From positions 558,001-622,000 of the forward strand of contig CM030338.1 in the NCBI GenBank assembly GCA_017654855.1: DNA of 64,000 bases. Reading direction: 5' to 3'. The translations under genes were made by a program, and so were the position numbers. The DNA is from Podospora anserina (Eukaryota). Shown here in pieces: positions 40,896 to 64,000 of the stretch (the stretch's first letter is position 1; every line of letters starts with the position of its first letter). The notes below the pieces were generated by a model. That model searched no databases. It was not told the origin of the DNA and saw nothing but the letters and a program-made list of their open reading frames with translations.

Positions 40896-41215
40896 TGTTA
40901 GTATAAAAGTGTTGTTAGAAATCCTGCAAACCTAAACAACCTAGCCCAGGTTGGCCCAAGCTCCTTGTGGAGCCAGTTATGGTTATCTAAACAGTAGACC
41001 CCCCCAAAACTAAGCAAAAAGAGACCCTTTTCTATACTCCCTTTAGTAACATCCTCTTTGTCACAGTAGGTAAGGCAGAACACTGAAACAAAGCAAACAG
41101 TATTGCTTAGACCAATTGATTGAATTGCAAGTTGAAGAAGAAAAGAAGGAAAATATCGACAAAGGCTTGCAGGGCAGGGCTTTTGATTCCAGCCGACCGA
41201 GCTTTGACCACCTGT

Positions 41216-41486
41216 TGGCTTGGGGTGCGGCCACAAGCCTAAGGGTATGAATGAGGAAGTGGGGCTCTCGGAGGATTCGGGGGGTTCAGGGGTTATGTAT
41301 ATAAGCTATCTGCTTCTCACATTCTATTTTAGACAAGACATCGACTTCTACTTCTTCAAATTTTGTGCCTTGCACGCGTGCAGGCAATTCTGGCCCTCTG
41401 ATTAGGCCAATCCGGTGCTTATTATATGGCCTGCAAGCCCATAGTGCCTTTTCTTTGTCCTGCGTGAAGTGCGGCCTGCGAGCAAG
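41216..41486 (+). mobile_element. diverged, truncated LTR related to the 46833-58692 element
   Basis: TGGCTTGGGGTGCGGCCACA.. aligns along its length with 46833-47105 with many substitutions. Confidence 0.85.
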
Positions 41487-41759
41487 TGTCACGGTCCAGT
41501 ATCGGCCAATCAGGAGTGGATCGAGGACCGTCTGTAAGTCAACGGTCCACGGTCCCAAGGTCTATATATACGGAGGAACTGGCTGGTGTAGATAGACAGT
41601 TCCGCAGTATGCAATACAAGTCACAATCGTTGGTATCTTAGCTATTGTGATTGAGATAAGCTATTTGTTGTATACTGTTTAGCTGTACCGAACCAGGATT
41701 GTTCAGAAGTGCCTTCAACCAATATCCCTTTCAGAGGTTCTGGATAGGGGTTCGTCACA
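41487..41759 (+). mobile_element. LTR (crapaud-like), short 5' variant
   Basis: TGTCACGG..TATATATACGGAGGAACTGG..GGGGTTCGTCACA. Confidence 0.85.
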
Positions 41760-42182
41760 GAAAGGGATACTGGTTGAAGGCACTTCTGAACAATCCTGGT
41801 TCGGTACAGCTAAACAGTGTACAACAAATGGCTTGTCTCAATCACAACAGTCTAGATACCAACGATTGTGACTTGTATTGCATACTGCGGAACTATCTAT
41901 CTACACCAGCCAGTTCCTCCGTATATATAGACCTTGGGACCGTGAGGTGCTCGCCCTGCTACGGCCCCGATCATCCTTAGCACATTGCATCCTGCAACAT
42001 GCTCGTCGTGCTATGCCTCCGATCACTCTTAGCATCTTGCATCCTGCAGAGTGCTCGTGGACCTTGGTGCCATAGCACTTTTGTCCAACCCTGATTGGCT
42101 GTTCCCTGACTTCCTTAATGATTGGCTGGGGACGTCCTGCGCCCCACATGTGGCGTGGCCTGCTGTTCGGTTAACTGTGACA
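41760..42182 (-). mobile_element. LTR (crapaud-like), inverted and 3'-truncated, fused to the previous LTR
   Basis: Reverse complement of ~41547-41733 followed by a different 5' half ending GTGACA. Confidence 0.85.
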
Positions 42183-44479: not shown

Positions 44480-46352
44480 ACGTGCGTGATAAGCGAGCCG
44501 AACAGACAAGCGAGCCGAACACTTTCCAACGCAGCGCAACCCTCCGACTTCTTTCACCAACTTTACCACCAATTCGCTATAAATTCACTTCCAACCGAAT
44601 CTCGAATTATTTTAGCCCTCGAAGCTATCAAAAACGACCCAAATCTTAGTCTTCGACGCGCAGCTAAGCTTTACAACGTACCAATTACAACTCTCCATAA
44701 CCGACGCGCTGGCCGGCTTACACGACGCAATATATTAACTAACTTACGTAAGCTTACCGATTTAGAAAAAAAACGATTATTTAATATATTATTAAGCTAT
44801 ATATACGCACATTCCATCCTCGGCTTTCGTATATAAAAAATATAGCCAATCGATTACTACGTAAACGTAACGTGCCTTCTATTAGCGTACGATAGGCTTA
44901 TAACTTCGTTAAACGCTAGCCAGAACTTCGGACGCGTTTTACACGTAAATATAGTTATTAAAGGGTTAAATATAAAGATTTAAAGGTTATTAATAAGTGA
45001 TTTACTTTCGTATAGAATACTAAAGTTAAATATAATATTATAAATAACGATATTTATAACTTCGACGAGATTAGGTTTATAATAAATATTATTTTCGCGA
45101 ATATAATAATTATAATTTTTAATAACTATAATAAAGCGAAACTGGCCCAGCCTAATAACCGTAAATAAGTAACGGTAGTTTAAGAAATTAATATTTTTAA
45201 TTAGGCTATTCGTCTTTTTATTATTTTAACTGTATAATATTACTTTATTAATTAATATATTAAATATAATTTACTATTTATTTAGTATATTATAATTATT
45301 AATAATAATTAAATTATTAATATAATAAGCTTAAATTAAATTAAATACTTTAATTATTATATAATGTCCCGTATAAAAAATAAATATCGGTTATTAATCC
45401 TCGATAGTTACGAAAGCTACTACTCGACTAAATTCAAACACTATTATTAATAAAATAATATTATTACGTTCTATATACCTCTATATTCCTCCTACTTCCT
45501 CTAACTACTTAATATTAATTACTTTAAGCCGCTAAAATAAATATACGGTCGTTAAATCGAGGATTTAATATATATATATATTAATTATATAAATAAATTC
45601 GAATTCCTTTATATTTTCCGCGAAGCCTTTTTCGCCTCTATATTAAAAAAAATATATAGGATAACTTTATAGGTACTAACTTTATATTATATAATTTAAA
45701 AAAAGTACTTTTTAAGCTAAATATAAAGCTTTGTACGTTAATACCTTTAAATTTATAGCCCGGCATTATATAACTTTAATATGTCGAACCCCTGTACAGA
45801 ACCTTTGAAAGGGATACTAGTTAAAGGTAACTTCTAATAATTAGTTCGGTGCAGCTAAATAGTGCACAATAAGATGTCTCAATGTAAATATAAGATACCG
45901 TAAATATAATTGTGAATTGCATACTGCGGAACTGTCTATTTACACTAGCTAGTTCCTCCGTATATATAGACCTTAGGACCGTAAGGTACTTACCTTACTA
46001 TGGCCCCGATCACCCCTAGCACATTGCATCCTGCAACGTGCTTGTCGTGCTATGCCTTTGATTACCCTTAGTATCTTGCATCCTATAGATTACTCGTGAG
46101 CCTTAGCGCCATAGTACTTTTGTCCTGGCCTGATTAGCTTGTTCCCTGGCTTCCTTAATAATTAGCTAGGGGCGACTTACGCCCCACATGTGGCGCGACC
46201 TGCCGTTAGGTTAACTGTAACATTTAAGTCTTTTAAATATTATATAACCCTCGAGAAACTAATTTATAATTAACGCTTATTAAAATTCATATTACTAATT
46301 ATTAAAATAATTCCTTAACTTTAATATTAATTACTATAAACTAGTTTATTAA
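44480..46352 (+). mobile_element. RIP-degraded pogo/Fot1-type DNA transposon, truncated
   Basis: TA|ACGT terminus with tandem AAGCGAGCCGAAC; HTH ESRIILALEAI..SLRRAAKLYNVP.TTL; NFDE motif near 45058; extreme TpA enrichment. Confidence 0.88.
45780..46222 (-). mobile_element. solo LTR (crapaud-like), TSD TTTAA, partly RIP-mutated
   Basis: Homologous to 41760-42182; TTTAA at 45775-45779 and 46223-46227. Confidence 0.88.
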
Positions 46353-46832: not shown

Positions 46833-47195
46833 TGGTTTGGGGTGCGGCCACAGGCCTGAGAGTATGAGTAAGGAAGCGGGGCTCTCAGAGGACTCAGGGG
46901 TTCAGGGGTCATGTATATAAGCGGTCTGCTTCGGACATTCTATTTTAGACAGGACATCGACTTTTATTCTTTTCTTCGTATTTTGTGCCTTGCACGCGTG
47001 CAGGCAATTCTGGCCCTCTGATCAGGCCAATCCGGTGCTTATTATGTGGCCTGCGAGCCCATAGTGTCTTTTCTTTGTCCTACGTGAAGTGCGGCCTGCG
47101 AGCGAGTCACTGTCACGCAGGTGTGTTCATTCTGAGACCTGTTGAGGGTATATTTGTGGTGTTGTGGTTGTTTTGTGTGTTTTCTCACCATTTCA
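46833..47195 (+). repeat. 5' LTR
   Basis: Identical by eye to 58330-58692; TATATAA at ~46914; palindrome TGCACGCGTGCA at 46991. Confidence 0.95.
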
Positions 47196-47774
47196 AATGG
47201 AGGTCGTGCCCGGGTTGAGCAAAGCTCAGGGTCCAAACTGGACTCACAAGCCCTGGGTACTGGAGGAAGTGCGAAGCCACGAACGACAACAAGCACCGAC
47301 AACTTCACTGAACCCCGCGAGGTTCAACGGAAACGATTCTTCTCCGTCTGATCGGATAAAGCTCTTTCATCATCGACCAAACTCTAAACTTTCTGCCCGC
47401 GAGTGGAGAGTCAAGTGTGTGGTCCGGATGGGACCGGGAAGTGAACTAAGAGCATTGGTTGAGACTAGCTCGTTAGTGGACCTTATCTCCGCGTCAACTA
47501 TCAAAGTCCTCTCCTATCTTTGGTTAGGAGGAATCCTCCTGGTGTGTTGTTTAGCGATGGTGGACAATCGTGGGGATTTCCGGGTCAGTTTGACTCAGGA
47601 CATCGGGAACCCAAAAGCAAGGAGACGAGGACACTTTCCCTCTGATCTGGGTAGATGTAACTCATGCCCACATACTGGAGTTGCAAGGGACAACCGTCTT
47701 CATATTTCCAACAACATACACAAGGAAAAGCCATACCACCAACGCAAACGCAACAGCAATCATCGAGTATCGAC

Positions 47775-50700
47775 ATGTCCGACAATGTCCCACCCATCGC
47801 TTCGGCTAGCCTTCCCGGCGACAACCAGGGGTATCAAGCTCCTACGGCTCGTTCCGTGGTAGAAGTGGCCATTCCGGCGGCCAGGTCCCCGGAATCATCA
47901 CCATTCGTCCTCTCCCCGGCTGCGAACCGCGCTCACCCTGAAGATGCTGAGACCCCTCGCCCCTTTCTGATCAAGGTGGCCCGACTGCAAGGCCCAACGC
48001 TCCTGACGTGCCAGGTGGACCTCGTACCCACCCAAATCCTGCTGCTTGGAATCATACTGCGCCTCCCACTCGGCATGCCGGATATCCCGCTCCTCTTCCT
48101 GGGTTCGCGCATCAATTCCAGCAACCCGGATACCCATATCCCATAGGAGCTTACCCCGACTATCGCCACTTCCAGGGGTCCCCTACGTCTGATCATCCAA
48201 CCCCCTATCCCATGGTGCCTATGTATTTTCCTCAGCGTGAATTCCCTGATCCGAAGAAAGTCGGTTTTAAGAGCAACTTCAAGGGAAGCACTTTACGGAA
48301 TATCTGGAGCGTTTCGAGAATGCCTGTGAAGAGTACCATGTCGTGGAATTTACCTCTCGCGTTCGCAAGTTCAAATCCTGGTGTGACTTCGATGTGGGAA
48401 AACAGATTGACGAATGTGTAGACCTACCTACACCCACCGATACTTGGCCTGTCCTGGTTGTCCGCCTTAAACGCCTCTTTAAGATCTATGACCCCCGACA
48501 AGACGAAGATATCCACAGGGAGTTGGATGACTTCTACGCCAAGGTTATCCCTGAAGGTGTGGGCGAGTTAAGGAAGGTTGTTTTTGACCACTCCAAACTG
48601 CTCTCTCGAGTGCCGACCGGGGAGAAAGAGGCAGTAAGAGCCAGGGTTGCCAGCCGCTTTTGGATGAAATTCTCCGAGTCAATGAGGATGACCCTTATCA
48701 ACCGAGGAGGATCCGAACGTCGTTTAAGATCCATGAATTTTATTACCTGGAGCGATTGGATTAATGATGTGATCGAAGATGGGTATGACGTGGGAGGAAG
48801 AATCTACAAGGAGGACAAATCAACCATTGCACCCTCCCCTGCTGCCTCTGATCAGGCGGCCGAGGTGCTCGACCAGTACATGGCGGTTAACGCTATGGTA
48901 GACAGAGAGATGGCACTGCAGCATTTGAGGGCGAATATCTACGGTGGTTTCTCTGCACCGGGAAACGGCAAATCTGGGATAATGAGGACCCGCGTTCAAC
49001 ACCTAGAAGACCAGGCACCTTACTCCCTGGATTTTGGCATTGGCCCTAATGGGGAAATGGATTCGTCTTTCAATACCTTCCCCATTGTTGATACTAAGAC
49101 CCAGTTCGGAAGATCAGGGGGGCAGTACCGCGATAGCCCTCCCCCACCAAGAAGGTGCTTCTGGTGCGGCAAGACTGGCCATTACGCTAAGTCGACGGAG
49201 TGTCCGAAGAAGGAGTATGATGAGGCGTGGGGACTGTGCCATACTGAAGGAGGCAGAGTGTGTATCGGTAAGAAGGAGTGGCCGGAGAGTGAAAAAGCGT
49301 GGCTTGATCAAGAGGATGTGAGGAAGGCGCAGCGTGAAGGGAAGGTTGGCGACCTGGTTCGTGCTGCAATTTCGTTGAAACCAGAACTGAATAGGGCCTA
49401 TGAAGCTTACACGAAATGGGCTGAGCACTGGGAAGCTCGTGAGGGCAAGGGATACAGGCCCGAGGTCTCTCTGATCAGAGGGAGGGAGCAGACAGCTACT
49501 CAGATGGCCAGGGCTATGGATGTCAGGTTAAACAGGCTTCATGGGTACTCCAAACCCTACGTACCGTTTAACGAGAACTCAGCCAGTGACTACATTACTA
49601 GGAATGCCTTGCAACGCTGCTCAGCAGAGAAGTGGTCGCCTAGGAGCATTCTGAAGCGCTCTGATGATGCCCCAGTGGTCGTCTGCAACCAAGAGGTGGA
49701 AGTGGGGGTAGGCGCGCAAGGAGCGAAGAGAGTAAGGATCGAGGATCTGCCGAAAGAGGATATGGATGACCCAGCCTCAGCCGAAAATCCGAAAGTGGTA
49801 CTCACCCCCGCGCAAGAGAAGCCAAAGGTAGTTGAGGAGGGAGTCTCGTCCGATCAGGGAAATGGAGTCCGGAGTGGCTCAAGGTTGCCTGATGGTGAGG
49901 CAGAGGACTCTGGGGATTACATTGCCGAGAAAGCCAAAAAGTACGCCTGTGGTCAGACTAAGTTCACACTGGAAGAGCATTGTAGGGTTTCACCCACATT
50001 TGCTTACCGGTTGATGGATTACGTGAAGAGTGTGGCCGAGGATGCTGAGGTGATCGAGTGGCGTGGATCTTCCAAGAGTACCCCGGATGGAAAGAGAGAA
50101 GTCCCACAGAAGGGGGAGGCCTTGCCGTCAACGGTTCGGACGAATTTTCAGACGGCTGGACACAGCAAGACTCCTCCGTCTGATCAGAGGAAGACTGTCC
50201 CTGCTTTGTACGGGATCACGGCGGATGGTGAGTATGGTGTGGTCGAGGGAGGCATCTGGGAGAAGATCATCGAAGGCAAGGTCCAACCGGGTGACAGCCC
50301 AGAAGAGCGATTGCGGACTCTGCTGTCTACGCCCATTGGCCGGCTTTCCGGTAGTGAGCGAACTCTCCTGGGAGCCGTCACTCGAACCCACAACGTCCCA
50401 TCGCTATATTGTAACTTCGTCTCACCAACTTCAGAGAAGGTGCTGGCAATGTTGGACACAGGCTCGGAGTGCAACCTGATCAGTAGGGCTGTAGCTGAGA
50501 GGTTCTGTCTACCGATGGTGTCGACGAACCTACAGTCTAAAGGCCTTCATGGAGATCCGGTTGCGTTTATAGGTGAGACTCAGGCTCCAGTAGTGCTGGC
50601 TGGGGTTCCAATTTTGTGTCATTTCTTCGTTATTGATAACACTGAGGCTCTGGGTTTCCATGACCTGCTATTGGGCATCCGTTCTTCACGGATACGAGCC

Positions 50701-50855
50701 TCACCCTTGATTTTATGAAGGGCTGTATGATTAGCGCGAATATGTTGTATGGGGGAAAGCTGATTAAGGCCCACGTGGTAAAAAAGGAGGTGATTGATAA
50801 GATGAAGGCGGAATATAACGGCAGGGATCGAGGTAATGCCTCTCCTGCCAGCTGA
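47775..50855 (+). CDS. gag: Gag with CCHC zinc knuckle + aspartic protease (frameshifts in homopolymers)
   Basis: MSDNVPP start; CFWCGKTGHYAKSTEC; AMLDTGSECNLI; DLLLGI; single-base gaps ~47963, ~48283, ~50678; in-frame TGA 50853-50855. Confidence 0.85.
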
Positions 50856-50864
50856 CCCTTACAG

Positions 50865-53800
50865 GTGTTTAAGGGATTGGTTAATGAAGGAGTACCTGTC
50901 CCTGAGTGGGTAACGGAGGAGCTGGAGGAAGGGGATGAAGTGATTGGGGGACTGAATGAAGGAGCTGGGCGTTCTTTGCTTAATTTTATTTTGGGGGAGT
51001 CAAGTTTGCCGTTATTAAATTATTGCCTAGCGTCTGATATTATTTCTTATAAAAACAAAGAAAAGGGGGATGTTAGGAGCAAGGGAGGAAAGAATATTAG
51101 TGATCAGAGGGAAGGAAAGAAGGGAGGTATAAGGGACTGCCAGAAAGAGAAGTCTTTGTTTCAGCCTGGAAGAGTGGAAATTACGACAAGAACTCTAACT
51201 TCGGACGAAATCTCAGGAAAGAACGACCGCCACCACCGACCTTCATAACAGGTCTGCATTTAGTACCGTCGCCACCACTGCCAAAGACATCGCCGCCGTC
51301 TGATCAGAGGACTAGCAGGATAACCCCATTTAAGCCCGATATGGCATCCTTATGCTTGGGGATATTTAACTGGTCCCTCACTCAACCAGGTCAGCGCAGC
51401 CTCTTCACTACACAACCACATAGACGTCATCCACCTCCGCCCCCTTCTGAGAAGAAAAACAACATGAAGACCAGCCTGATCACCACTTTTGAACAGGCCT
51501 GGCCAACGCCTGCGGATATTGTTACTACTGCTACGATGTACAAGAGGGTAGATAAGAAGGTGAAGCCGGTTGATAATGCTGGGTCAGATGGTAGCACTCC
51601 TGAAGGAGATCCGAACTGGAAAGTAAGGAGATGGGCGGCAGTCAAGGAATCCCTACAATACGGCTCAGAATTCGACGATATTGTGGTCCCTAAGTTTTCT
51701 GAAATGATCAGAGGGTCACGCCTCACTCCAGAACGCTTAGCCGATCTGATCAGACAAACCACCGACATTTTGACAGATCAGGAGGTTAAAGTGTTTACGG
51801 CAATCTTATTCGCAAGGGAGGCTGCACTGGCATGGGACTTCACCGAGTGTGGACAGATCCTTGAAGAAGTCTTCCCTGCTCAACACATCAGGACTATCCC
51901 TCACAAAGCGTGGCAAAGCAAGTCTATTCCGATCCCGAAGCCACTCGTGGGGAAAGTCATCGATCTCCTTAGGGAACGAATCAAGAGAAATATTATTGAG
52001 GAAGCGCATGGTCCCTACCGCAACAACTGGTTCCTAGTAAAGAAAAAGGATGGTGGCCTCCGTCTGATCAACGATGCCCAGAGATACAATAAGGTTACGC
52101 AACGAGATGCCTTTATCCCACCAAGCACTGAGGAGTTCAGCGAGGACTTTGCAGGGTGCCTTATTACCTCCTTGCTTGACTTCTTCTCCGGATACGACCA
52201 AGTCAAATTAGCCCTGACGAGCCGAGACCTCACTACCTTCGCGACACCTATCGGCCTATTCAGGATGTGTACCCTACCTCAAGGAGCTACCAACTCAGTG
52301 GCCCAGTTCCAAAGAGCCGTGACCAGAGTCTTTCAAGATCTCATCCCACAGGTGTGTCGGCCATACCTGGACGATATCGCAGTGAAAGGGCCAAGGTGGG
52401 ACTACAATGGTGAAGAAGAAAGGCCAGGAGTTAGGAAGTGGGTCCTGGAGCACTTGAAGAATATCGACGCAGTCTTGCTCAACTGTGAGCTTGCAGGAGC
52501 CACAATTGCAGCCGTGAAATCCCTTTGGTGCAGACGGGAAGCTGTTATCCTTGGCTATTCCTGTACACCGGACGGGCGCCTCCTGATCAGACAAAGATAG
52601 TGAAGATAAGGGAATGGCGAACTTGCCACAGTCTTAAGGATGTTCGCGCCTTCCTGGGGATCACCGGCTACTATCGGCTATGGGTACCTCTCTTCAATCT
52701 GATCGCAGTTCCGCTGTATTTCTTGATGAGGAAGGACACGAGATGGGAATGGACGGAAGCTCAACAGGGTGCGATGGAGTGGCTTGCCTTTCTGATCACA
52801 GAGGCACCGTGTCTGGCTTCTCTGACGTTTGATGACGACCGTTTCGGTAGAATCTTTGTTATTTTTGATGCAAGCTTGACGGGGTGGGGAGCGGTGATTG
52901 AACAAGTAGGACCTGATGGAAAACGGCACCCTTGTCGGTTTGAGAGTGGTATTTGGAGCCCGGCTGAACAGAGGTATGATGCCACCAAGAGGGAGTTGAG
53001 AGGACTGTTGTATACTTTGAGGAGATTTAGAAGGTATCTTTTCGGGGTACACTTTACGGTGGAAACGGACGCTCAAGTGGTAGTCCACCAAGTCCAGGGG
53101 GCGGCTAGTGACGTTCCCGGCGCCTTGATGATGAGATGGCTGGGATGGATTAGACTTTTCGACTTCACAATTGTTCACATCCCTGGGAGTAAGAACCTTG
53201 TGGCAGACGCACTATCGAGAAAGCCACCTGGCCCCTCTGATCTGAGGGAGAAGGAGTTAGAGCCAGACATTGATGATGAGGTTGACGCAAGGATCTGGAA
53301 GAACGATATCCAGGAAGTAAGTGTCTGGCGGGTGAATATCAGGAAGAAGAAAAAGGAAGTTATTGGGCAAGGCCCCTACTTGAATGGACTGTGGTCTCCT
53401 CACTCCCATGCTATCGCCGAGTTCCTCGCGACTGGTGCGGAGCCAAGGGCTAAGACGAGGTTTGACGTTCAGACCATCAAGAATGACGCCCTGAAAATGA
53501 TTCTCGAAGACGGAGTTTTGTTTCTTAAGCCAAACAAAGGAGGCTTTCCCCCCAGGAGAATTGTTGACCCTCTGATCGAGCGGGAAAGAGTCTTCAATGC
53601 GTGTCACAACGAGATGGGCCACAAAGGACGGGAAGCTACCTATGCCCGAGTAGTAGAAAACTACTACTGGAAGGGTATGTACGCTGACGTCGAGGCTTGG
53701 ATCAAGACATGTAGGCAATGTCAACAATGGAGCCCGAAGCGTTGGGAGGACTGGCACTTATATACTGAGCCTTTAGCTACCCCATTTGCGAAGTGGCATT

Positions 53801-55004
53801 TAGACGTTCAGTTCTTACCAACGGCTTCGGGAGAAAAAGCCTACCTTCTGGAAGCGAGGGATGACTTGACTGGGTATCCAGAAGCGAAGGTCTTGAGCTC
53901 AGGCAAGGCTTCTGGGGTTGAGAACTTTATCCTGCACGATATCATCCTCAGATGGGGTCACCCTCTGATCGTGGTGGTGGACGGCGGATCAGAATTTAGG
54001 AAGGAAGCTGCTGAGATTTTAGAGAGGCTAGGAGTTCTTCGGGTGGTGGTCTCACCTTACAACGCAAGAGCAAATGGAGTGACGGAGTCTGGTCACATCC
54101 CAATTGCATCGATGCTGGCAAAAATGACGGATGGGACGGGGAAGAAGTGGAAGCAGTGGCTCCCTTATGTGTTGTTTGCTGATAGGACCACGACACGAGG
54201 TATTCATGGGTACAGTGCTTTCTATCTGGCACATGGGTTTAACCCCATTACGCCGATCGAAAAGGACGTACCGTCATGGAGAGTCGTCCAGTGGGAAAAG
54301 ATTGGCTTCGACAGATCAGGGAGACACTGGAAGGAGAGAGCGACTATGGATTTAATAGAGGCAAGGGCGAGACTATTGAAATCCCAGGAGATGAATCTGA
54401 CTCTGGTGGCTGAGAGGGTTGGCATGGCAAGACAGAAAGCCGCGGCAAGAAAGAACAGAAAAGGGATTCGCAGCATTAGGCCTGAGAATAGCATGATCAG
54501 AAGGGGGGACTTGGTGTTGGTGTATAAAATGGATAGAAAGTTGGATATGAGTGTGGTAAGGAAGCTACAGTACCGCTGGGACGGCCCTTTCAGAGTGAGG
54601 AAGGTCGAACCAGGCAACACTTGCTACTTCCTGGAGACACTGGATGGGGTGCCATTGCGAGCTTCTTACACGCCAAACAGGGTAAAGAAGTTTTTAGGTT
54701 GGAAGACGTGTATGTAGATGAAGAGGATACGGACATGCAGCCAGGACTAGGGAGAGTTGAGCAGGTGCCTGGGAATGGAGTGAAGGAAGGCGTGGATATG
54801 GTGGAAGATGAGGATGAAGAAGAAGAGATAGTGGAAGAAACACCAGGGAGAATGATGACCAGGGGGAAGACTTGGATGGAACGGAAGAATGCTGAGGTGC
54901 AGAAGAGATTTGAGAAGGGCAAAAGTATAGAGGTGGTCCTGAAGAAGGGTAGACCAGAGGACTTCTTGGGTGATCAGGGGGAGACGATGACGAAGGCGTT
55001 GTAG
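50865..55004 (+). CDS. pol: Pol: reverse transcriptase, RNase H, integrase (frameshifts in homopolymers)
   Basis: YKRVDKKVKPV, LDFFSGYDQ, LPQGATNS, YLDD; FDASLTGWG, VADALSR; HNEMGH..CRQC, HLD..VDGGSEF..TE; WDGPF; gaps ~51110, ~52581, ~54693. Confidence 0.92.
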
Positions 55005-55225
55005 TTGTTGTTTTTCTTTAAGAGGGTACTGAAGCTTGTGTTGTGAGAACAGAGCTGTGGGAGCTGTCTGTTCTCAAAGGGAGGAAAGACACTAAGGGAG
55101 GTGATTGATTGGGGTGAAGATCATCGCATTGAATTTTTAATTTTTTCTTTTTCTTTTCCTGTCATTTCTTTTTCCGATTCACTCCTCTCTTTATGCCCCT
55201 TCCTCTGATCTGAGGAAGTGGAAGA

Positions 55226-56297
55226 CTATTCTTTTTCTTTCTTCTTCTCCTTCTTCTTATCCATCTGCTGTTTCCTAAGCTCTTTGTACTCAGCCCGCTG
55301 TTCTTCCCACTCCTGGTCCCAATCGACTTCCTCACCACCAGGAATCAAGCTCACGGCACCACGATCCAACTTCGATAACCCACCACTACCAAGATCCTTG
55401 AAGTAAGGGCTGTCCTCATCAACACTGGACCATGAGCAATGGATACCCTTATGCCAGCAGTTCCCGCATTTCCAATCGAGGTCCTCTCTTCCCACACAAC
55501 CGAAGTATGGCCACATCACCTTAGTTTTGGTCCCATCGGGGGGAACGTCACGAAAAGACCGGCGATAGCTCTGATCGCACTCATCACATGGATTGGCATG
55601 ACTGAATCCAACATGTTAGTGTCAGGCTAAGTCTGATCAGGGGGGCGGCACTTACAGTAACCCGGTGGCCTGGACAAATAAGCCTTTAGAGCGATGAGCC
55701 CGCTTGACGATTTCGAAGAGCCAGCGCCCGAAGAACCACCCATTGGACCGTTCGACGAAAATCCGCCTAACGGAACCGGTCGACAACGCCTTGGAGATGT
55801 AATCAGTGACAGTCTTGTCCGCACCAATGTCCTTGAAAAGTAGCTGCCACTCTTTCTTACCCCCTTCTTCGTCGGATCAGGGAGGAACCACTCAAGGTAG
55901 AGGGAGCAGCCACGTGTTTGGGATCTAGAGGGGAAATCTTGAGGTACCAAAGAGCAGCCTGATGGGGGAGAGAAATGTCGTGATAAGCATTAGCACCTTT
56001 GGGCATGGTGGAGTCGTGAACGCAAGTAGGACGCCGAACCCAGACGTGCCTCTTGTAAGCAACGCCTTGATTGTTGGGAGCACGGGTGAGGTCGGTGGGA
56101 CGATGAGTGAGGGTAGCAAGCAAAGGCTCTTGAGTAGGGTCTATGGCGACCTCGGACCAGTCGTACGCAGCAAGGTCAAGGACTCCCTCGACCTGACTGG
56201 GAAGTTTTTTGGCGAAAGAGGTCGTGGATACCTGGGTAGTAAGGTCGTCGACCGCCTGATCGGACGAAGCAGCAGGTTTCCTCAAAGAAGAGGCCAT
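55226..56297 (-). CDS. antisense accessory gene: Cys-rich DUF3716-like protein, one intron
   Basis: TATAAATA (minus) at 56367-56374; intron 55602-55655 GTAAGT..CTAAC..CAG; spliced GLFVQATGLLHANPCDEC..PYFGCV..CGNCWHKGIHCS; Lys-rich tail; needs three single-base homopolymer corrections. Confidence 0.68.
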
Positions 56298-56635
56298 TGG
56301 GAGGAAGCGGTTAATAAGTACTGAAAAAGATGAGGAGTGAGCGGGAATGAGGAGAACTGGCATGGGTATTTATAACCAGAGGATAGGACGGTGCGACTGG
56401 TCCTACAGACCTCTACAGGAGGAGACTCATCAGAGCGCTCTTTCCTCCTCAAACGGCTTACGCAACTATCTGATGATCTTGCCTTACAAGCCAGGCAGAC
56501 AACAGAGAACAAAGACTCACCGAAGACCTTCTTCCCTCTTTAACTCTCCATTCCAAAAAATTCCTCACTTCCTCTCGACAACCCTCTGATCACAGATCAC
56601 ACCACACACTACTCCCTCTCAATTCTCACAGAACG

Positions 56636-58114
56636 ATGTCATCAACGCTTTTTACAAAGTCCATTCACGACATGTCATGGGAAGAATTCACCGCCACCAA
56701 GAAATTCGGCCCTCCCAATGATCTCGTTAAAGAGATTATTCGGAAAGCGCGCCTTCAAGGTATCGACAGGGTCTATGGCTCTGGTCCCCCGCGCGGCATC
56801 TTCCTTCCCCAAGGCGATGACACTCTCTGGCCTGTTCGTTTTGGCCTTAACCTGGTTGCCGACCCAGGAGATCATGTTGTGGGAAGGCGGCCCGACTGGA
56901 TCAACACCACTTTCGTGGAGCAGTTTTCGATTGACACTATCAAATATCTTTTTCCTGGCTTGAGAATAACGACCCCCCCTGATCGGACTCACATCTACGG
57001 TATCCATGTAGCTTCCCTCACTTGCGCTATGTATGACCTTCAAGGTCAACTAGAGGCCAAGCAGTGGCTCACTAGCTCGGTCCTTACCTGCGCTCTTCGG
57101 TACTCTCTTCAGGGAATCCTCGAGCGTTGTATATGGATCCCTGGAGAGCCTCTGAACCCTGTTATGATGAAGTCGTCGATGCGCTTTTTCCTGCCTAACG
57201 ACAACCACAACGCCTTTGACCGACGATACTGGGTCCTCCCCATTCATGTCAACAACGGAAGCCACTGGGCAGTGGGCATCTACGACGTTGCTACTGGCAT
57301 TTTGGTTTATATGGACTCGTCGAAGGATTGGAAGGGGTATCAAGCTAATGCTATTTCTTGCCTGGTATCTTACATCCGTCACGCTTTCCACTGCAGCCTT
57401 GACGTGAAAGTGAGGAGGCCAGCTTGCGGTGAACAGGGCGGGGCGTGGGAATGTGGTCTTTGGGTCTTGGAGCACTGCCGTACCTACTTTCAGGGAGGTG
57501 TTTCGTACGGTGAAGAGGAGGATTTAACGGTAGTAAAGGCTTGGAGAGGAGATCGTTGCTACAGAGACTGCAAGACCGTGGGCGTTGCGGGGAAGAAGAT
57601 GATGAGGTTGTGGATGGCTTATGTGAAAAGGTCTTTGGGTTGTGAGCCTGATCAGAGGGTGCGTGATAAGAAATGGAGGAGGAGGGGCCTGGAGGACTTG
57701 ATGGACGCGGAAGGATTCAACCTGCCAAGCACCCTCTCGTCTCCTTTCAAGTCTCCACCAATTCCCCGGTTTGCTTCCCTCCCTGGTTCTCCGTTAGCTT
57801 TGGTTACTACTGTTGAGGGAGATGAGTGCGTCGTGGGTCTTCCCTCTGATCATGAAGGGTTTGGACCAAGTAGCGTGTCGAGCAACTCTCAACGACCAAG
57901 CAGGGTAGCAACCCCCTTTGGGTTCCGCACTCCTGTGACAATGGACTCGCCGCTCCTCTCTGGGCCTGTAATTGCCCGTCCCCTACTTATGACCACTCAG
58001 GATCGCCAACAACACACCTTTCGCCTGATCACACACCTGGTTTCATGGGATGGGAGTGGGCTCCTGGAGTTCCTCAGAGACGAAGGGAGGAGGTCGTTAG
58101 GTCACCAGTTGTGA
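56636..58114 (+). CDS. Ulp1/SENP-like cysteine protease (peptidase C48) inside the retrotransposon
   Basis: QWLTS; WVLPIHVNNGSHWAV (His); YMDS (Asp); EQGGAWECGLWV (Gln, Cys); intronless 492-aa ORF. Confidence 0.88.
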   Translation: MSSTLFTKSIHDMSWEEFTATKKFGPPNDLVKEIIRKARLQGIDRVYGSGPPRGIFLPQGDDTLWPVRFGLNLVADPGDHVVGRRPDWINTTFVEQFSIDTIKYLFPGLRITTPPDRTHIYGIHVASLTCAMYDLQGQLEAKQWLTSSVLTCALRYSLQGILERCIWIPGEPLNPVMMKSSMRFFLPNDNHNAFDRRYWVLPIHVNNGSHWAVGIYDVATGILVYMDSSKDWKGYQANAISCLVSYIRHAFHCSLDVKVRRPACGEQGGAWECGLWVLEHCRTYFQGGVSYGEEEDLTVVKAWRGDRCYRDCKTVGVAGKKMMRLWMAYVKRSLGCEPDQRVRDKKWRRRGLEDLMDAEGFNLPSTLSSPFKSPPIPRFASLPGSPLALVTTVEGDECVVGLPSDHEGFGPSSVSSNSQRPSRVATPFGFRTPVTMDSPLLSGPVIARPLLMTTQDRQQHTFRLITHLVSWDGSGLLEFLRDEGRRSLGHQL

Positions 58115-58329
58115 TGGCTCGACAGGGACGGAGGTATGCTCTGAGATCCGAGAAGTGAGGGTGCTCTTCTCTCTGATCAAGGGAGAATGGATAAAGGGAT
58201 AGCAGGATTACATCGTTTTCCCTTCTTTCTGCTGAACGATATTTTCTTTTTTTTTTGGTTTGTAAGGGATTTTTTTCTTGTGTACGCATTTGCCCACTGG
58301 TTTGTAGTGGTCAAATGCGAAGGGAGGTT

Positions 58330-58692
58330 TGGTTTGGGGTGCGGCCACAGGCCTGAGAGTATGAGTAAGGAAGCGGGGCTCTCAGAGGACTCAGGGGTTC
58401 AGGGGTCATGTATATAAGCGGTCTGCTTCGGACATTCTATTTTAGACAGGACATCGACTTTTATTCTTTTCTTCGTATTTTGTGCCTTGCACGCGTGCAG
58501 GCAATTCTGGCCCTCTGATCAGGCCAATCCGGTGCTTATTATGTGGCCTGCGAGCCCATAGTGTCTTTTCTTTGTCCTACGTGAAGTGCGGCCTGCGAGC
58601 GAGTCACTGTCACGCAGGTGTGTTCATTCTGAGACCTGTTGAGGGTATATTTGTGGTGTTGTGGTTGTTTTGTGTGTTTTCTCACCATTTCA
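58330..58692 (+). repeat. 3' LTR
   Basis: Direct repeat of 46833-47195. Confidence 0.95.
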
Positions 58693-58742: not shown

Positions 58743-59230
58743 TATTATAACCTTAGTATAGGATAGTTATGGGGCTATAGGAATAAAGGGCTAATCGGGA
58801 GAACGTATAGGGAAGCTAATTATAGTGAAGGTAGAGTAATTAATATAATTAGGGCACTAAGCAAACTAAGTAGAGTAATTAATATAATTAAAGTACTAAG
58901 TAAACTAAGTAAAGGTAATTAGTGTAATTAAGGCACTAAGCAGATTAAGTAGAGGTAATTAGTGTGATTAGGGCACTGAGCAGACTAAGCCGAGGTAATC
59001 AGTGGCCTTAGGAGACTAATTACGGCTTGGTATAAGGACTATATATACGGAGAAACTAGCTAGTATAGATAAACAGTTCCGTAATATATAATTTAGCTTA
59101 TATTTACGGTATTTAGTGTTTATATTGAGATATTTTATTGTGCACTATTTAGCTGCACCGAACCAGGATTATTTAGAAGTTATTTTTAATTAGTATTCCT
59201 TTTAGAGGTTCTGGATAGGGGTTCGTCACA
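58743..59230 (+). mobile_element. RIP-mutated solo LTR (same variant as 40271-40654, more tandem units), TSD CTAAG
   Basis: C>T/G>A version of 40271-40654; CTAAG at 58738-58742 and 59231-59235. Confidence 0.88.
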
Positions 59231-59784
59231 CTAAGCCGGGAAGTTCCATTACTGCTTATAGCAGTACTGCCCACTATAATATTAATCTGTAGGGCAGTAA
59301 GTAAGGCACTTAGTAGTACCCACACATTAACAAAAATATAATACTTAATATTTATTAAGGGAGTTAAGATCGTTTTATTTAGTTAGTAAATTAGCCGCTA
59401 AAACTTTTATATTAGTATAGGTAGGAGCATAGTTAAGGCTTTCCTAACGAAAGATTTATTAAATAATAAAATCTTTTTAGCCGTAAGAAAGTCGCTATTG
59501 GTTTTTATAGGCAAGGTTCCTTAGTAGGGTACTATTAATATAGTGCTTTAGGGTAGAACGTAGAATCCCATATTTATTAAACGCTTTTCGCTGGCTTATA
59601 CTAGCGGTAATGTCTTTCTGGGTATTTTTAATATCCTCCTCGGTATATTTGGCTATTGTTGGGTACCTAGAGTAAAAAAAAGTAAAAGAAAAGCTTCATT
59701 TTTGGTCTCTGTGGGTGGAATATAAAGTGTGTGTTGATATTGGGAGGCTTTCGGAGGTCCAGGGTTGTGGAGGGTTTAATGTGG

Positions 59785-60203
59785 TGTCACAGACTAACCA
59801 TATAGCAAGGCAGAGTGGGGACTGCAGCAGGCCGTAGTGACCAGTCAAGTAACAGATAACAGCGGGGCTGCAGGATAGTGGGGCGCTCACCTCCTGGCAA
59901 AGGTAAGCCGGCCCGCCAGGAGCGCTGGGTGAGCGAGGTGAGCCAGGATGGATCACCAGGAGCGCTTGGTGATCGAGGTGATCCAGGTACGGAGGTACCT
60001 AGAGGATTAAGGTCTATATATACGGAGGAACTGGCCGGTGTAAATAGACAGTTCCGCAGTATGCAATTCAGCTTGTATTTACGGTATCTAGTGTTTACAT
60101 TAAAGATATCTTATTGTGCACTGTTTAGCTACACCGAACTAATTATTAGAAGTTACCTTCAACCAGTATCCCTTTCAGAGGTTCTGTACAGGGGTTCGTT
60201 ATA
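59785..60203 (+). mobile_element. solo LTR (crapaud-like, another 5' variant), TSD TGTGG
   Basis: TGTCACAG start, conserved TATATATACGGAGGAACTGG 3' half; TGTGG on both sides. Confidence 0.88.
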
Positions 60204-60280
60204 TGTGGGTAGATGGCTTGGGTAGTTTAAACTTACCTGGGCCATATCCATATGTGGTCCACTTCCTTGTTATCCAACCT

Positions 60281-60748
60281 ACCGGTTGAAAGCGAACTTC
60301 TAGATAATGGATCGGTGTAGCTAAACAGTGCACAACAAGATATCTCGATGTAAACACTCAGGATACCGTGAATACAAACTGTGATTACATACTACGGAAC
60401 TATCTACAAGCTATCTAGTTCCTCCATATATATAGACCTAATGCCAAGACCTGGATCATTCTGTTTCTTCGTGGATCGTGACTGACTCCCAAGGATCATT
60501 CATGATCTCCTTATGCCCTGGATGATCCACTCCCTATTGGTCTATTCTCCTCTCCTCTGATTGGTCACCGCGTCTCTACTTCCCAATTAGTTGTTCTTTT
60601 CGGGTGTCTACATCATATTCGTAACACATTGAGACATATTGTTGTGTACTACTTAGCTGCACCGATCTATTATCTAGAAGTTCGCCTTTAACCGGTATCC
60701 CTTTTAAAGGTTTTGGACAGGGGATCGTCACAACAAGGGATCGTCACA
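60281..60748. mobile_element. diverged LTR fragments in both orientations
   Basis: Minus-strand copy ~60281-60626 abutting a plus-strand 3' end ~60627-60732; GGGATCGTCACA duplicated. Confidence 0.7.
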
Positions 60749-61081
60749 TTTTGGCAAACTAGTAAGAACCTCTGAAAGAATCCTCAACTTCAGAGGTCTC
60801 CAAAACTACCTGAACAGAGATTGAGGATAAAAAACCGTTGAAAGAACCTCTGAAAGCTTAAAGCCACAACGGCTATAACGCCCACAGGTGCGAAGAAAAG
60901 AACCTTCTATCACCGCGCACTGGCCAACACGCTCAGCCATATTAGGTAAGATAAGATAGGATGCAGCATTCGATTACGCCGACACATAAAACAAAAACCC
61001 ATTATAACTACGCCACTTAGCTACGGTGGCCAGAGACTTTAGTGTGTATGGATGCTCGTCGCCAAGCACTCGCTGGTGAGC

Positions 61082-64000
61082 TTAAGCACAGTTCTTCATC
61101 AGTGCTAAAGCGTCTGCGTGTCGTCCTTGGCTTTTCCAAGTATAAGCGAGGTTAGCCATACTCGTTAACGTATCTGGGTGATCGGCCCCAAGCTTGGTCT
61201 TCCGAGTCTCCATCACCTGCACCTCCAGCTTCTCGGCCTCCTCCCACCGGCCCTGGCTCCTGTATGTCGACGCTAGGTTGGCCATGCTCGTCAGCGTATC
61301 TGGGTGATCGGCCCCAAGCTTGGTCTTGCTCGTCTCCATCACCTGCACTTCCAGCTTCTCGGCCTCCTCCCACCGGCCCTGCCTCCTGTATGTCGACGCT
61401 AGGTTGGCCATGCTCGTCAGCGTGTCTGGGTGATCGGCCCCAAGCTTGGTCTTCCGAGTCTCCATCACCTGCACCTCCAGCTTCTCGGCCTCCTCCCACC
61501 GGCCCTGGCTCCCGTATGTCGACGCTAGGTTGGCCATGCTCGTTAGCGTAGAAGGGTGATCGGCCCCAAGCTTGGTCTTCCGAGTCTCCATCACCTGTAC
61601 GTCCAGCTTCTCGGCCTCCTCCCACCGGCCCTGGTTCCAAAATGTCGACGCTAGGTTGGCCATGCTCGTTAGCGTAGAAGGGTGATCGGCCCCAAGCTTG
61701 GTCTTCCGAGTCTCCATTACCTGCACCTCCAGCTTCTCGGCCTCCTCCCACCGGCCCTGGTTCCTGTATGTCGACGCTAGGTTGGCCATGCTCGTCAGCG
61801 TATCTGGGTGATCGGCCCCAAGCTTGGTCTTGCTTATCTCCATCACCTCCACGTCTAGCTTCTCGGCCTCCTCCCACCGGCCCTGGTTCCAAAATGTCGA
61901 CGCTAGGTTGGCCATGCTCGTCAGCGTATCTGGGTGATCGGCCCCAAGCTTGGTCTTCCGAGTCTCCATCACCTGCACTTCCAGCTTCTCGGCCTCCTCC
62001 CACCGGCCCTGGCTCCCGTATGTCGACGCTAGGTTGGCCATGCTCGTTAGCGTAGAAGGGTGATCGGCCCCAAGCGTAGTCTTCCGAGTCTCCATCACCT
62101 GTACGTCCAGCTTCTCGGCCTCCTCCCACCGGCCCTGGTTCCAAAATGTCGACGCTAGGTTGGCCATGCTCGTCAGCGTATCTGGGTGATCGGCCCCAAG
62201 CTTGGTCTTGCTCGTCTCCATCACCTGCACCTCCAGCTTCTCGGCCTCCTCCCACCGGCCCTGGCTCCTGTATGTCGACGCTAGGTTGGCCATGCTCGTC
62301 AGCGTATCTGGGTGATCGGCCCCAAGCTTGGTCTTGCTCGTCTCCATCACCTGCACTTCCAGCTTCTCGGCCTCCTCCCACCGGCCCTGCCTCCTGTATG
62401 TCGACGCTAGGTTGGCCATGCTCGTCAGCGTGTCTGGGTGATCGGCCCCAAGCTTGGTCTTCCGAGTCTCCATCACCTGCACCTCCAGCTTCTCGGCCTC
62501 CTCCCACCGGCCCTGGTTCCAAAATGTCGACGCTAGGTTGGCCATGCTCGTTAGCGTAGAAGGGTGATCGGCCCCAAGCTTGGTCTTCCGAGTCTCCATT
62601 ACCTGCACCTCCAGCTTCTCGGCCTCCTCCCACCGGCCCTGGTTCCTGTATGTCGACGCTAGGTTGGCCATGCTCGTCAGCGTATCTGGGTGATCGGCCC
62701 CAAGCTTGGTCTTGCTCGTCTCCATCACCTGCACTTCCAGCTTCTCGGCCTCCTCCCACCGGCCCTGCCTCCTGTATGTCGACGCTAGGTTGGCCATGCT
62801 CGTCAGCGTATCTGGGTGATCGGCCCCAAGCTTGGTCTTCCGAGTCTCCATCACCTGCACCTCCAGCTTCTCGGCCTCCTCCCACCGGCCCTGGCTCCTG
62901 TATGTCGACGCTAGGTTGGCCATGCTCGTCAGCGTGTCTGGGTGATCGGCCCCAAGCTTGGTCTTGCTCGTCTCCATTACCTGCACCTCCAGCTTCTCGG
63001 CCTCCTCCCACCGGCCCTGGTTCCTGTATGTCGACGCTAGGTTGGCCATGCTCGTCAGCGTAGAAGGGTGATCGGCCCCAAGCTTGGTCTTGCTCGTCTC
63101 CATCACCTGCACTTCCAGCTTCTCGGCCTCCTCCCACCGGCCCTGGCTCCTGTATGTCGACGCTAGGTTGGCCATGCTCGTTAGCGTAGAAGGGTGATCG
63201 GCCCCAAGCGTAGTCTTCCGAGTCTCCATCACCTGTACGTCCAGCTTCTCGGCCTCCTCCCACCGGCCTTCGTCGTAATATATTCTTCCTATCGTCGCCC
63301 CGATGAAACTTGGATTTCTCAAAAAATACTCCCGTTCCTGGCCATCATCCCCATGAATATCTGGCAAGTGTCCAGCTAGATGTCGACGGAAATCAGGCTG
63401 TTCCTCCTCGATGTTCTGACAGCACGCTGCCAAAACAAATACCATATACCACTGCTGCCATGGCCAGCTTCGGTGGCTTAGCATTGCCCGCCACCGAACC
63501 AGGCCATGCATTGTCACGCCAGCCCACCCCCCATCGACTCGCTGCAACAAGCTATAACGGAGCAGTAGACGGCAGCCCTGCTGATATCGAAAATCATCCC
63601 ATTTGTCTCCATCGAGTGGAAGGAATTGCTGGAGTTCAAAGGGCATCCCTTCGCTCTCCTCTTCCCCCATATTAGCCTTGACTTTTTCCATGCCAAGACT
63701 GGCCAGACGAAACATCTCATCCTGGATAATACCGCCCTTAAAATGTGCAAGAAACGTCAGCAATACATCAGGTCGCAGGCCTTTATTTTCCATCGCGATT
63801 TTCTCGAGCGTGGTGTCCCATACTGTCCACACCGTCTTCTCCGTCGCCAATAACCCTCTAAAAAAGTCCATCTGGAGGAGCTCGTCGCGGTGCCTCTCAT
63901 AGTCCGCGAGGTATCGCTGCAAAGCCTTGTCAGAAGGAGAATGGCTACCGATATAGGCGCCAGCAATATCAATGGCAAGTGCTAAGAATTCCAGCTTTTT
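61082..64000 (-). CDS. NLR-like protein (probably NB-ARC) with highly conserved TPR repeats; 5' part outside the window
   Basis: FLALAIDIAGAYI, TVWTVWDTT, LLRYSLL..MHGLV post-NOD motifs; about 17 repeats of 42 aa GRWEEAEKL..LGADHP.TLTSMANLAST. Confidence 0.9.
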   Translation of the reverse strand, partial: KKLEFLALAIDIAGAYIGSHSPSDKALQRYLADYERHRDELLQMDFFRGLLATEKTVWTVWDTTLEKIAMENKGLRPDVLLTFLAHFKGGIIQDEMFRLASLGMEKVKANMGEEESEGMPFELQQFLPLDGDKWDDFRYQQGCRLLLRYSLLQRVDGGWAGVTMHGLVRWRAMLSHRSWPWQQWYMVFVLAACCQNIEEEQPDFRRHLAGHLPDIHGDDGQEREYFLRNPSFIGATIGRIYYDEGRWEEAEKLDVQVMETRKTTLGADHPSTLTSMANLASTYRSQGRWEEAEKLEVQVMETSKTKLGADHPSTLTSMANLASTYRNQGRWEEAEKLEVQVMETSKTKLGADHPDTLTSMANLASTYRSQGRWEEAEKLEVQVMETRKTKLGADHPDTLTSMANLASTYRRQGRWEEAEKLEVQVMETSKTKLGADHPDTLTSMANLASTYRNQGRWEEAEKLEVQVMETRKTKLGADHPSTLTSMANLASTFWNQGRWEEAEKLEVQVMETRKTKLGADHPDTLTSMANLASTYRRQGRWEEAEKLEVQVMETSKTKLGADHPDTLTSMANLASTYRSQGRWEEAEKLEVQVMETSKTKLGADHPDTLTSMANLASTFWNQGRWEEAEKLDVQVMETRKTTLGADHPSTLTSMANLASTYGSQGRWEEAEKLEVQVMETRKTKLGADHPDTLTSMANLASTFWNQGRWEEAEKLDVEVMEISKTKLGADHPDTLTSMANLASTYRNQGRWEEAEKLEVQVMETRKTKLGADHPSTLTSMANLASTFWNQGRWEEAEKLDVQVMETRKTKLGADHPSTLTSMANLASTYGSQGRWEEAEKLEVQVMETRKTKLGADHPDTLTSMANLASTYRRQGRWEEAEKLEVQVMETSKTKLGADHPDTLTSMANLASTYRSQGRWEEAEKLEVQVMETRKTKLGADHPDTLTSMANLAYTWKSQGRHADALALMKNCA
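61135..63270 (-). repeat. 126-bp tandem array encoding the TPR repeats
   Basis: Near-identical units at 126-bp period. Confidence 0.97.

Follow-up and report, generated by a model that had tools for sequence, protein, structure and literature searches.

Antisense genes, the DUF3716 domain (in one DNA transposon) and Ulp1 proteases are each known singly from transposons. Their combination is not found in the literature searched, which held no fungal LTR element with a DUF3716-like/Ulp1-like pair or a palindrome array and had most subscription papers and supplements outside its range. Antisense genes lying after pol have been described in plants and in the Boty elements of Botrytis, according to the available text of PMC7264820. 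One of them is brtn, an additional antisense gene of the Boty-like Ty3/Gypsy elements in Botrytis cinerea and Sclerotinia (Zhao et al. 2011, as cited in the available portions of PMC7264820 and PMC8365987). The DUF3716 domain is found in REP9-1 and REP9-2 of the Zymoseptoria IS3EU transposon, and a transposon-borne DUF3716 gene alters the sporulation of that host, as reported in the accessible part of PMC8232023. A Fusarium DUF3716 protein has been called orthologous to Neurospora NCU05718, and NCU05718 directly binds double-stranded TTAGGG (available text of PMC10776026 and PMC4650311). Ulp1 domains, in turn, are carried by the DNA transposons Ginger1 and Mutator/KAONASHI, where the accessible text of PMC2836005 leaves their function unresolved.

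The VANC protein of VANDAL, a Mutator-like element of Arabidopsis, is a case where both motif binding and demethylation have been demonstrated (PMC5735166, PMC13317346, in the portions available). VANDALs are plant DNA transposons with an accessory gene and a short motif enriched in the cognate element, including the introns of the accessory gene; in the same portions these motifs are described as non-palindromic, non-coding and arising by tandem repeats, and some VANDALs also have a Ulp1 domain (PMC13317346). In the available parts of PMC7264820 and PMC2836005 the roles of the antisense accessory genes and of the transposon-borne Ulp1 proteases are left open, and it is a wider question how transposons of fungi remain active in the face of RIP and heterochromatin. 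Among the Ty3 elements of Podospora, crapaud is about 7.3 kb long (800 bp is given as about 11% of it) and has two ORFs and a chromodomain (PMC10787394, in part), and the available accounts of grenouille in PMC10787394 and bioRxiv 10.64898/2025.12.02.690432 mention no accessory genes.

The window, by which we mean the whole stretch of 64,000 nucleotides analysed here, contains an 11.9-kb Ty3/Gypsy retrotransposon at 46833-58692. It has identical LTRs of 363 bp with TG...CA ends, a 4-bp target-site duplication, a polypurine tract, and the gag-PR-RT-RH-IN order typical of this class. The element is young, and its two accessory genes stand back to back in the interval from pol to the 3' LTR; its features are as follows.

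46833..47195, plus strand: 5' LTR, TG...CA, 363 bp, with the 4-bp target-site duplication before it and a motif copy at 47017.
47017..58523, no strand: palindrome TCTG-AT-CAGA and variants, 14 sites with at most one mismatch in 11.5 kb, against 1 in the 45 kb outside.
48664..50718, plus strand: gag-protease ORF in its assembled form, with below-cut-off matches to a zinc knuckle and an aspartyl protease.
51341..52600, plus strand: part of pol with the reverse transcriptase (RVT_1, E 2e-14); the reads lack the break at its end.
52726..55004, plus strand: RNase H-integrase part of pol, with no Pfam match for a chromodomain.
55204..55213, no strand: motif copy just behind the antisense stop codon; the relatives L088 and L084 have one at a like place.
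55226..55601, minus strand: antisense exon 2, with a six-Cys DUF3716-like domain and a C-terminal Lys/Glu-rich helix (predicted, pLDDT 79-88); stop at 55226.
55602..55655, minus strand: intron, 54 nt, phase-2 GT-AG (donor GTAAGT, branch site CTAAC, acceptor CAG); motif copy at 55632.
55656..56297, minus strand: antisense exon 1 from the likely start ATG, with a conserved N-terminal domain without a Pfam family; single-base errors near 55860 and 55902.
56367..56374, minus strand: TATAAATA box, TATA-type by sequence, 70 nt upstream of the likely start codon.
56585..56594, no strand: a copy of the motif within the leader of the Ulp1-like gene, matched by one at a like place in L088.
56636..58114, plus strand: Ulp1-like (Peptidase_C48) protease gene; His, Asp, Gln and Cys present; 18.2 bits against a cut-off of 20.7.
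58330..58692, plus strand: 3' LTR, identical to the 5' LTR, with the polypurine tract before and the target-site duplication after it.

With its 11.9 kb, four genes and no chromodomain match, the element is not crapaud, though like crapaud and grenouille it belongs to a multi-copy, RIP-hit Ty3 family of Podospora. The 3' region of the element has 42 matches in the genome. Among the 30 loci retrieved, L001-L004 are about 99% identical, L012 is a fragment diverged by about 8-10%, and in 22 gene-covering copies nearly all differences are C-to-T or G-to-A, the type that marks RIP. With about 22 copies so heavily hit, the module carried by the element evidently does not stop RIP. Like the brtn-bearing elements, this fungal Ty3/Gypsy element has a protein-coding gene in antisense orientation after pol and before the 3' LTR, a likeness of position; the available accounts of brtn (PMC7264820, PMC8365987) say nothing of an intron, a DUF3716 domain, a Ulp1 partner or a motif array. 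From the stop of the gag-protease ORF to the first ATG of RT there are about 620 bp (50718-51341), a stretch with homopolymer differences from the reads, and in L088 gag and pol are two long adjoining ORFs.

An earlier note on this DNA had proposed a hidden, spliced, antisense DUF3716-like gene in the retrotransposon. This gene is almost certainly real, judging from its continuous product, its conserved intron site, an 18-residue gap in the alignments and a bias of divergence to third positions: compared with L012, codon positions 3, 1 and 2 differ at 41, 24 and 12 sites (331 third positions). The product, put at about 340 aa, has 338 aa when counted from the ATG at 56297, as in the protein P0038 of a public contig. 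The TATAAATA box assigned to the gene is indeed there, at 56374-56367 on the minus strand. Another ATG, at 56363, is probably absent from the transcript because it lies just 3 nt behind this TATA box.

Three homopolymers, at ~55540, ~55862 and ~55903, had been singled out for a check at the level of reads. The last two (about 55860 and 55902) turned out to be assembly errors, whereas the first is not a frame break. The contigs of all four sequencing runs compared differ from the window in homopolymers near 55538, 55553, 55860 and 55902, and the same differences from the window are found in the copies L002, L003, L004 and L012. Since the frame breaks are missing from the contigs of 4/4 runs and from four other copies, they are assembly errors; the pair at 55538 and 55553 sums to three bases, so that a few codons are altered and the frame is unbroken. 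Exon 1 is open as assembled in copy L003, to which 14 of the 22 RIP-hit copies align without gaps, and elsewhere every assembled copy has homopolymer indels of its own. Genuine frameshifts and programmed shifting are ruled out, as both the reads and the other copies are open. Homopolymer errors of this kind hide such genes in long-read assemblies.

The intron, which the earlier note called canonical, has the expected splice signals, an exact joint in P0038 and the same site in relatives, and on four lines of sequence evidence it is real. The public contig encodes the 338-aa P0038 continuously, with the exons joined exactly at the GT-AG boundaries, and has the strain variant at 55600 that is also present in three RNA-like runs; formally, this contig could also reflect a precise genomic loss of the intron. 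A full HMMER scan, for which L003 was read through the intron with X at stops, found 33 homologs, compared with 1, 1 and 3 matches in word-indexed protein searches. Against nine continuous homologs the 18 intron-encoded residues appear as an exact insertion, P0038 crosses the exon junction without a gap in the homolog alignment, and 10 of the 33 homologs stop at the same site, two residues past a conserved Gly. A phase-2 GT-AG intron is located at the same codon in 9/9 metagenome loci (near-duplicates among them, about six being independent) as well as in L040, a distant paralog in the same genome; these introns are 50-76 nt long and mostly not multiples of three. The contig sets X1, X5 and X8, guessed to be RNA and made of contigs that drop rarer forms, contain the unspliced form and no joint at the intron.

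It was also claimed that the antisense intron outlasts reverse transcription, and the 54-nt intron is kept in all of the loci that cover the site (27 of 30). The reasoning is sound and accords with what is established for retroelements: in the packaged sense RNA an intron of the opposite strand goes unseen and is never spliced out, so that it is copied intact and persists.

The encoded protein begins with a conserved N-terminal domain that no Pfam family covers, followed by a six-Cys domain and, at the C-terminal end, a helix rich in Lys and Glu. The pattern Q.TG..PCxxC..PYFGCV..CGNC..CS, from which its family had been called, is found at about 55681-55436. As to the call itself, the likeness to DUF3716 held up and formal membership did not. 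In a Pfam scan of P0038 the sole match is DUF3716 (PF12511), with 14.3 bits against a cut-off of 22 and an E value of 0.038; among the 22 homologs scanned, DUF3716 matched in 16 and the cut-off was passed by six. A profile of the antisense-protein family compared with six host DUF3716 domains gave a probability of 96.9% and an E value of 1.7e-10. The six residues C220, C223, C249, C259, C262 and C269 are invariant in 10/10 full-length sequences and follow the DUF3716 order G..PCxxC...F.C...CxNC...C. With a score below the cut-off and a profile match of this strength, the protein is, by sequence, a long-loop DUF3716-like protein and not a formal member of the family. It has in common with REP9-1, REP9-2 and NCU05718 the six-Cys domain with conserved residues in the same order. 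Unlike them, it has a 25-residue loop between Cys2 and Cys3, a Pfam score below the cut-off and a fused, conserved N-terminal domain, and its gene is antisense in a retrotransposon.

The Zn(II)2Cys6 cluster (PF00172) is spaced C-x2-C-x6-C-x5-12-C-x2-C-x6-8-C. The cysteines of the antisense protein are spaced x2, x25, x9, x2 and x6, and the 25 residues from Cys2 to Cys3 make it something other than a canonical Zn2Cys6; P0038 itself has no Zn_clus match, and 2 of 17 members match at E about 0.3. Structure prediction gave a mean pLDDT of 56.6 with an alignment-based model that included the 18 intron-derived residues, and 35.3 with a single-sequence model. Foldseek with the moderate model found no PDB match at E 0.001 or better, a VIA-align fold search found no clear match (best Z 2.0), and profile searches of PDB sequences returned nothing significant; these failed matches do not show a new fold. 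Viral contigs contained no relative.

The neighbouring sense gene encodes the Ulp1-like protein, which is identical to a database entry labelled Podospora anserina, with a UniRef label of ubiquitin-like protease family. Its counterpart in L088 scores 17.1 bits for Peptidase_C48, also under the cut-off of 20.7. The His, Gln and Cys of the predicted catalytic site align in both elements, and the Asp of the Podospora protein is an Asn in L088. The putative Ulp1 catalytic domain of this gene, carried by a mobile element, recalls those of Ginger1 and Mutator/KAONASHI; unlike them, it belongs to an LTR retrotransposon, where the protease has a gene of its own in sense orientation that stands back to back with a DUF3716-like gene. 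The two genes were thought to share a divergent promoter of ~340 bp. The distance from ATG to ATG, 56297-56636, is indeed 339 bp, and the motif copy placed in this region is present at 56582-56595, but the sharing found no support, as there is no TATA toward the protease. Just 5' of the protease ATG, a pyrimidine-rich tract at 56595-56638 ends in CAG and resembles a splice acceptor; expression of the protease may thus depend on splicing of the LTR transcript rather than on a promoter of its own. The contigs have no joint at this tract. An upstream in-frame ATG, at 56473, is present in other copies of the protease gene.

The layout of the four genes is conserved in a distant element. L087 and L088, two contigs of one element, contain gag, pol, the antisense homolog and the Ulp1-like gene in the same order and orientation, with identities of 53% in the RNase H-integrase region, 25% in Ulp1 and 26% in the antisense protein. 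A partial layout is seen in L082, which has a divergent Ulp1 piece, and in L084, which has a convergent pol end; L086 and L089 are too short for their layout to be judged. In L083, L085 and L090 the homologs are found beside host-like genes, away from LTR elements, and with 0-2 motif sites. The distant paralog L040 (G000:C1:5834444 region) is 28% identical, has the same intron and no motif site in the surrounding 20 kb. This region, with L074-L077, contains a duplicated segment with an SNF2/helicase-like ORF and another Ulp1-like ORF, and gives the impression of being the cargo of a large mobile element. A conserved CTTCCCTTTCGAATT-like stretch is located 30-60 nt upstream of the homolog start codon in L082, L084, L086 and L089, followed by a possible stem-loop in L082 and L086; it was not seen in the element of the window.

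The element also keeps a dispersed palindrome, TCTG-NN-CAGA, from one end to the other. With up to two mismatches and an intact GATC core there are 33 sites in the element, and CTGATCAG occurs 11 times in it and not once in the other 52 kb of the window. L088 has 18 perfect copies of TCTG-NN-CAGA, where 0.27 are expected, and none with spacers of 0, 1 or 3-6. A matrix built from L088 alone recovers 12 sites in the element of the window and none in the other 52 kb. Eight of the 14 best sites fall, dispersed, in the four sense ORFs, and the in-ORF counts stand well above those of synonymous-codon shuffles (8 against 0.86 and 14 against 0.62, or 9- and 22-fold). Three pol sites are common to the element of the window and L088 and most are not, which means that the sites turn over and the word persists. 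From these counts, the inverted repeat is element-specific and selected. A single site gives little specificity, given that the 12-bp word is found 53 times genome-wide compared with 35 for a control, a mild enrichment.

These results bear directly on the view that the antisense gene is a captured host gene, or a passenger without a role for the element, and that the word simply results from codon use or from a bias in mutation. The homologs that adjoin host-like genes in L083, L085 and L090 would suit such an origin. A passenger would hardly be expected to keep its layout across elements with about 50% pol divergence, to diverge with a bias to third positions, or to be accompanied by a 9- and 22-fold motif excess over synonymous shuffles; the shuffles and the third-position bias have already largely refuted this view, and we consider it highly improbable.

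A more specific suggestion is that the protein acts on the RNA of the element, in the manner of Rev or CERV, in export, packaging or splicing control, with the word as an RNA signal. A retrotransposon accessory protein with such a role is on record, as CERV of the Caenorhabditis elegans Cer1 element is required for the export of genomic RNA (available text of PMC10309623), and the word is palindromic and found throughout the transcribed region. What speaks for DNA is the form of the word itself. A two-base loop cannot close an RNA hairpin, the flanks of the motif pair no more than expected by chance and have no pairing covariation, which argues against RNA hairpins and points to double-stranded DNA, and in L088 the spacer is constant in length and free in sequence, as would suit a dimer on dsDNA. 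The hairpin reading of the motif was rejected on the flank pairing, and an RNA role for the protein seems quite improbable. The spacing of the sites is somewhat more even than random, gaps under 120 bp being scarce (P 0.003-0.13); nucleosome-like periodicity was not significant in a Rayleigh test over nine site definitions (best P 0.15) or in a pair-distance test over nine definitions and two distance limits (best P 0.10).

If the word is read as DNA, its reader could still be something other than the antisense protein. The word may be a docking site for a host factor (a DUF3716 protein or another transcription or chromatin factor) or for the integrase, and the antisense protein may have a different task, for instance in directing integration or in an action on host genes. 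Several DUF3716 proteins are encoded by the host, with at least 7 places over the cut-off (8 matches), and these could be the true readers of the word; elements whose antisense proteins are just 26% identical have the word in common, which would suit a slowly changing host reader; a transposon-borne DUF3716 gene does change host sporulation in Zymoseptoria (PMC8232023, in part); and there are homologs without motif arrays. Against this stands the distribution of the sites. The motif is kept inside the antisense intron of the window's element, L088, L082, L084 and L086, and behind the antisense stop in several relatives. It is absent from the intron in L083, L085, L090 and L040, and the L089 intron has TCTAGTTAGA, which looks like a RIP-mutated copy. 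The spacer depends on the family, being AT in 10 of 11 sites of the window's element and mixed in L088. Nine control regions at other integrase-like matches of the same genome contain neither accessory gene and 0-2 sites per 10 kb, with the reservation that just four of the nine are clearly RT/integrase-like, at 21-29% identity, and may be old relics. We consider a host factor or the integrase as reader unlikely, though worth keeping in mind.

We lean slightly toward the reading in which the antisense protein itself binds the word. It would be a nuclear, probably dimeric, zinc-dependent factor that reads TCTG-NN-CAGA on double-stranded DNA and thereby marks the copies of its own family, favouring their transcription or shielding them from heterochromatin, with the deSUMOylase as its possible catalytic partner. 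Feedback control could come from the motif copies within the intron of its gene, past its stop codon and in the leader of the protease. That the element thus encodes its own DNA-binding regulator of TCTG-NN-CAGA, working like Arabidopsis VANC, is by analogy an evenly balanced proposition. An anti-silencing outcome is a more tentative proposal. More tentative still is the generalization that a fungal Ty3/Gypsy clade may encode a module of self-recognition and anti-silencing, in which a DUF3716-like reader on a family-specific palindrome in coding sequence would bring an element-encoded deSUMOylase to strip SUMO-dependent heterochromatin. Counting against the best reading are the homologs with few or no sites (L083, L085, L090 and L040). 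Moreover, gene and motif occur together in about four independent relatives, a co-occurrence that common descent could explain by itself.

The same protein could also bind the word to the opposite effect, repressing or timing the element as a form of copy-number control that limits host damage and exposure to RIP, perhaps with a contribution from the antisense transcript. This would draw on the same motif evidence, as sites in the bodies of ORFs could block chromatin as well as open it, and a regulatory role of antisense transcripts has been raised in the accessible text of PMC7264820. The antisense transcript is, however, predicted to overlap pol little or not at all, and the pairing with a deSUMOylase-like gene echoes the Ulp1-bearing VANDAL elements, which escape silencing (PMC13317346, in the text available). 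Self-repression is accordingly given a very low probability.

The comparison with VANC can be made at several points. The Podospora element, like the VANDALs, has an accessory gene together with a short motif enriched in the cognate element, the intron of the accessory gene included, and its Ulp1-like gene recalls the Ulp1 domain of some VANDALs (PMC5735166, PMC13317346, in the portions available). Unlike the VANC targets, its motif is a dispersed palindrome, largely inside the ORFs of a fungal retrotransposon, and does not form tandem repeats. A module that works like VANC without being a member of the VANC system is thus a description to which, by analogy, we would give about an even chance. 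A tractable model fungus offers here, within a single element, candidates for the reader and the enzyme and a precise candidate for the binding word. If the reading proved true, there would be a fungal retroelement counterpart of VANC, DUF3716 would be a sequence-specific reader used by transposons, and a DUF3716-like protein on a transposon would have its first molecular function.

Some further traces of the family are found in the genome and around the element. L078 (G000:C8:3603000-3612999) is a distant and heavily mutated relative in which gag, pol, the antisense gene region and Ulp1 are still detectable. The L012 fragment (L012:1490-2760; G000:C1:5806718-5807979) is a lone piece of 1.26 kb that covers the antisense gene almost exactly and keeps the intron; its divergence has no RIP pattern, it contains stops and frameshifts, and it is away from any pol, among other mobile-looking ORFs. 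A second short fragment is found at C1:6017186. In the window, a solo-LTR-like copy of the family (41211-41487, 85-94% identical) is located about 5.6 kb upstream of the element. A second repeat family flanks the element in both orientations (40336-41944, 45779-46139 and 58831-60856), and includes an inverted pair of 185 bp at 41548-41944 as well as copies decayed in a RIP-like manner. Further downstream, at 61020-63335, a 126-bp (42-codon) unit is repeated in 17 tandem copies within a long minus-strand ORF (61082-63871).
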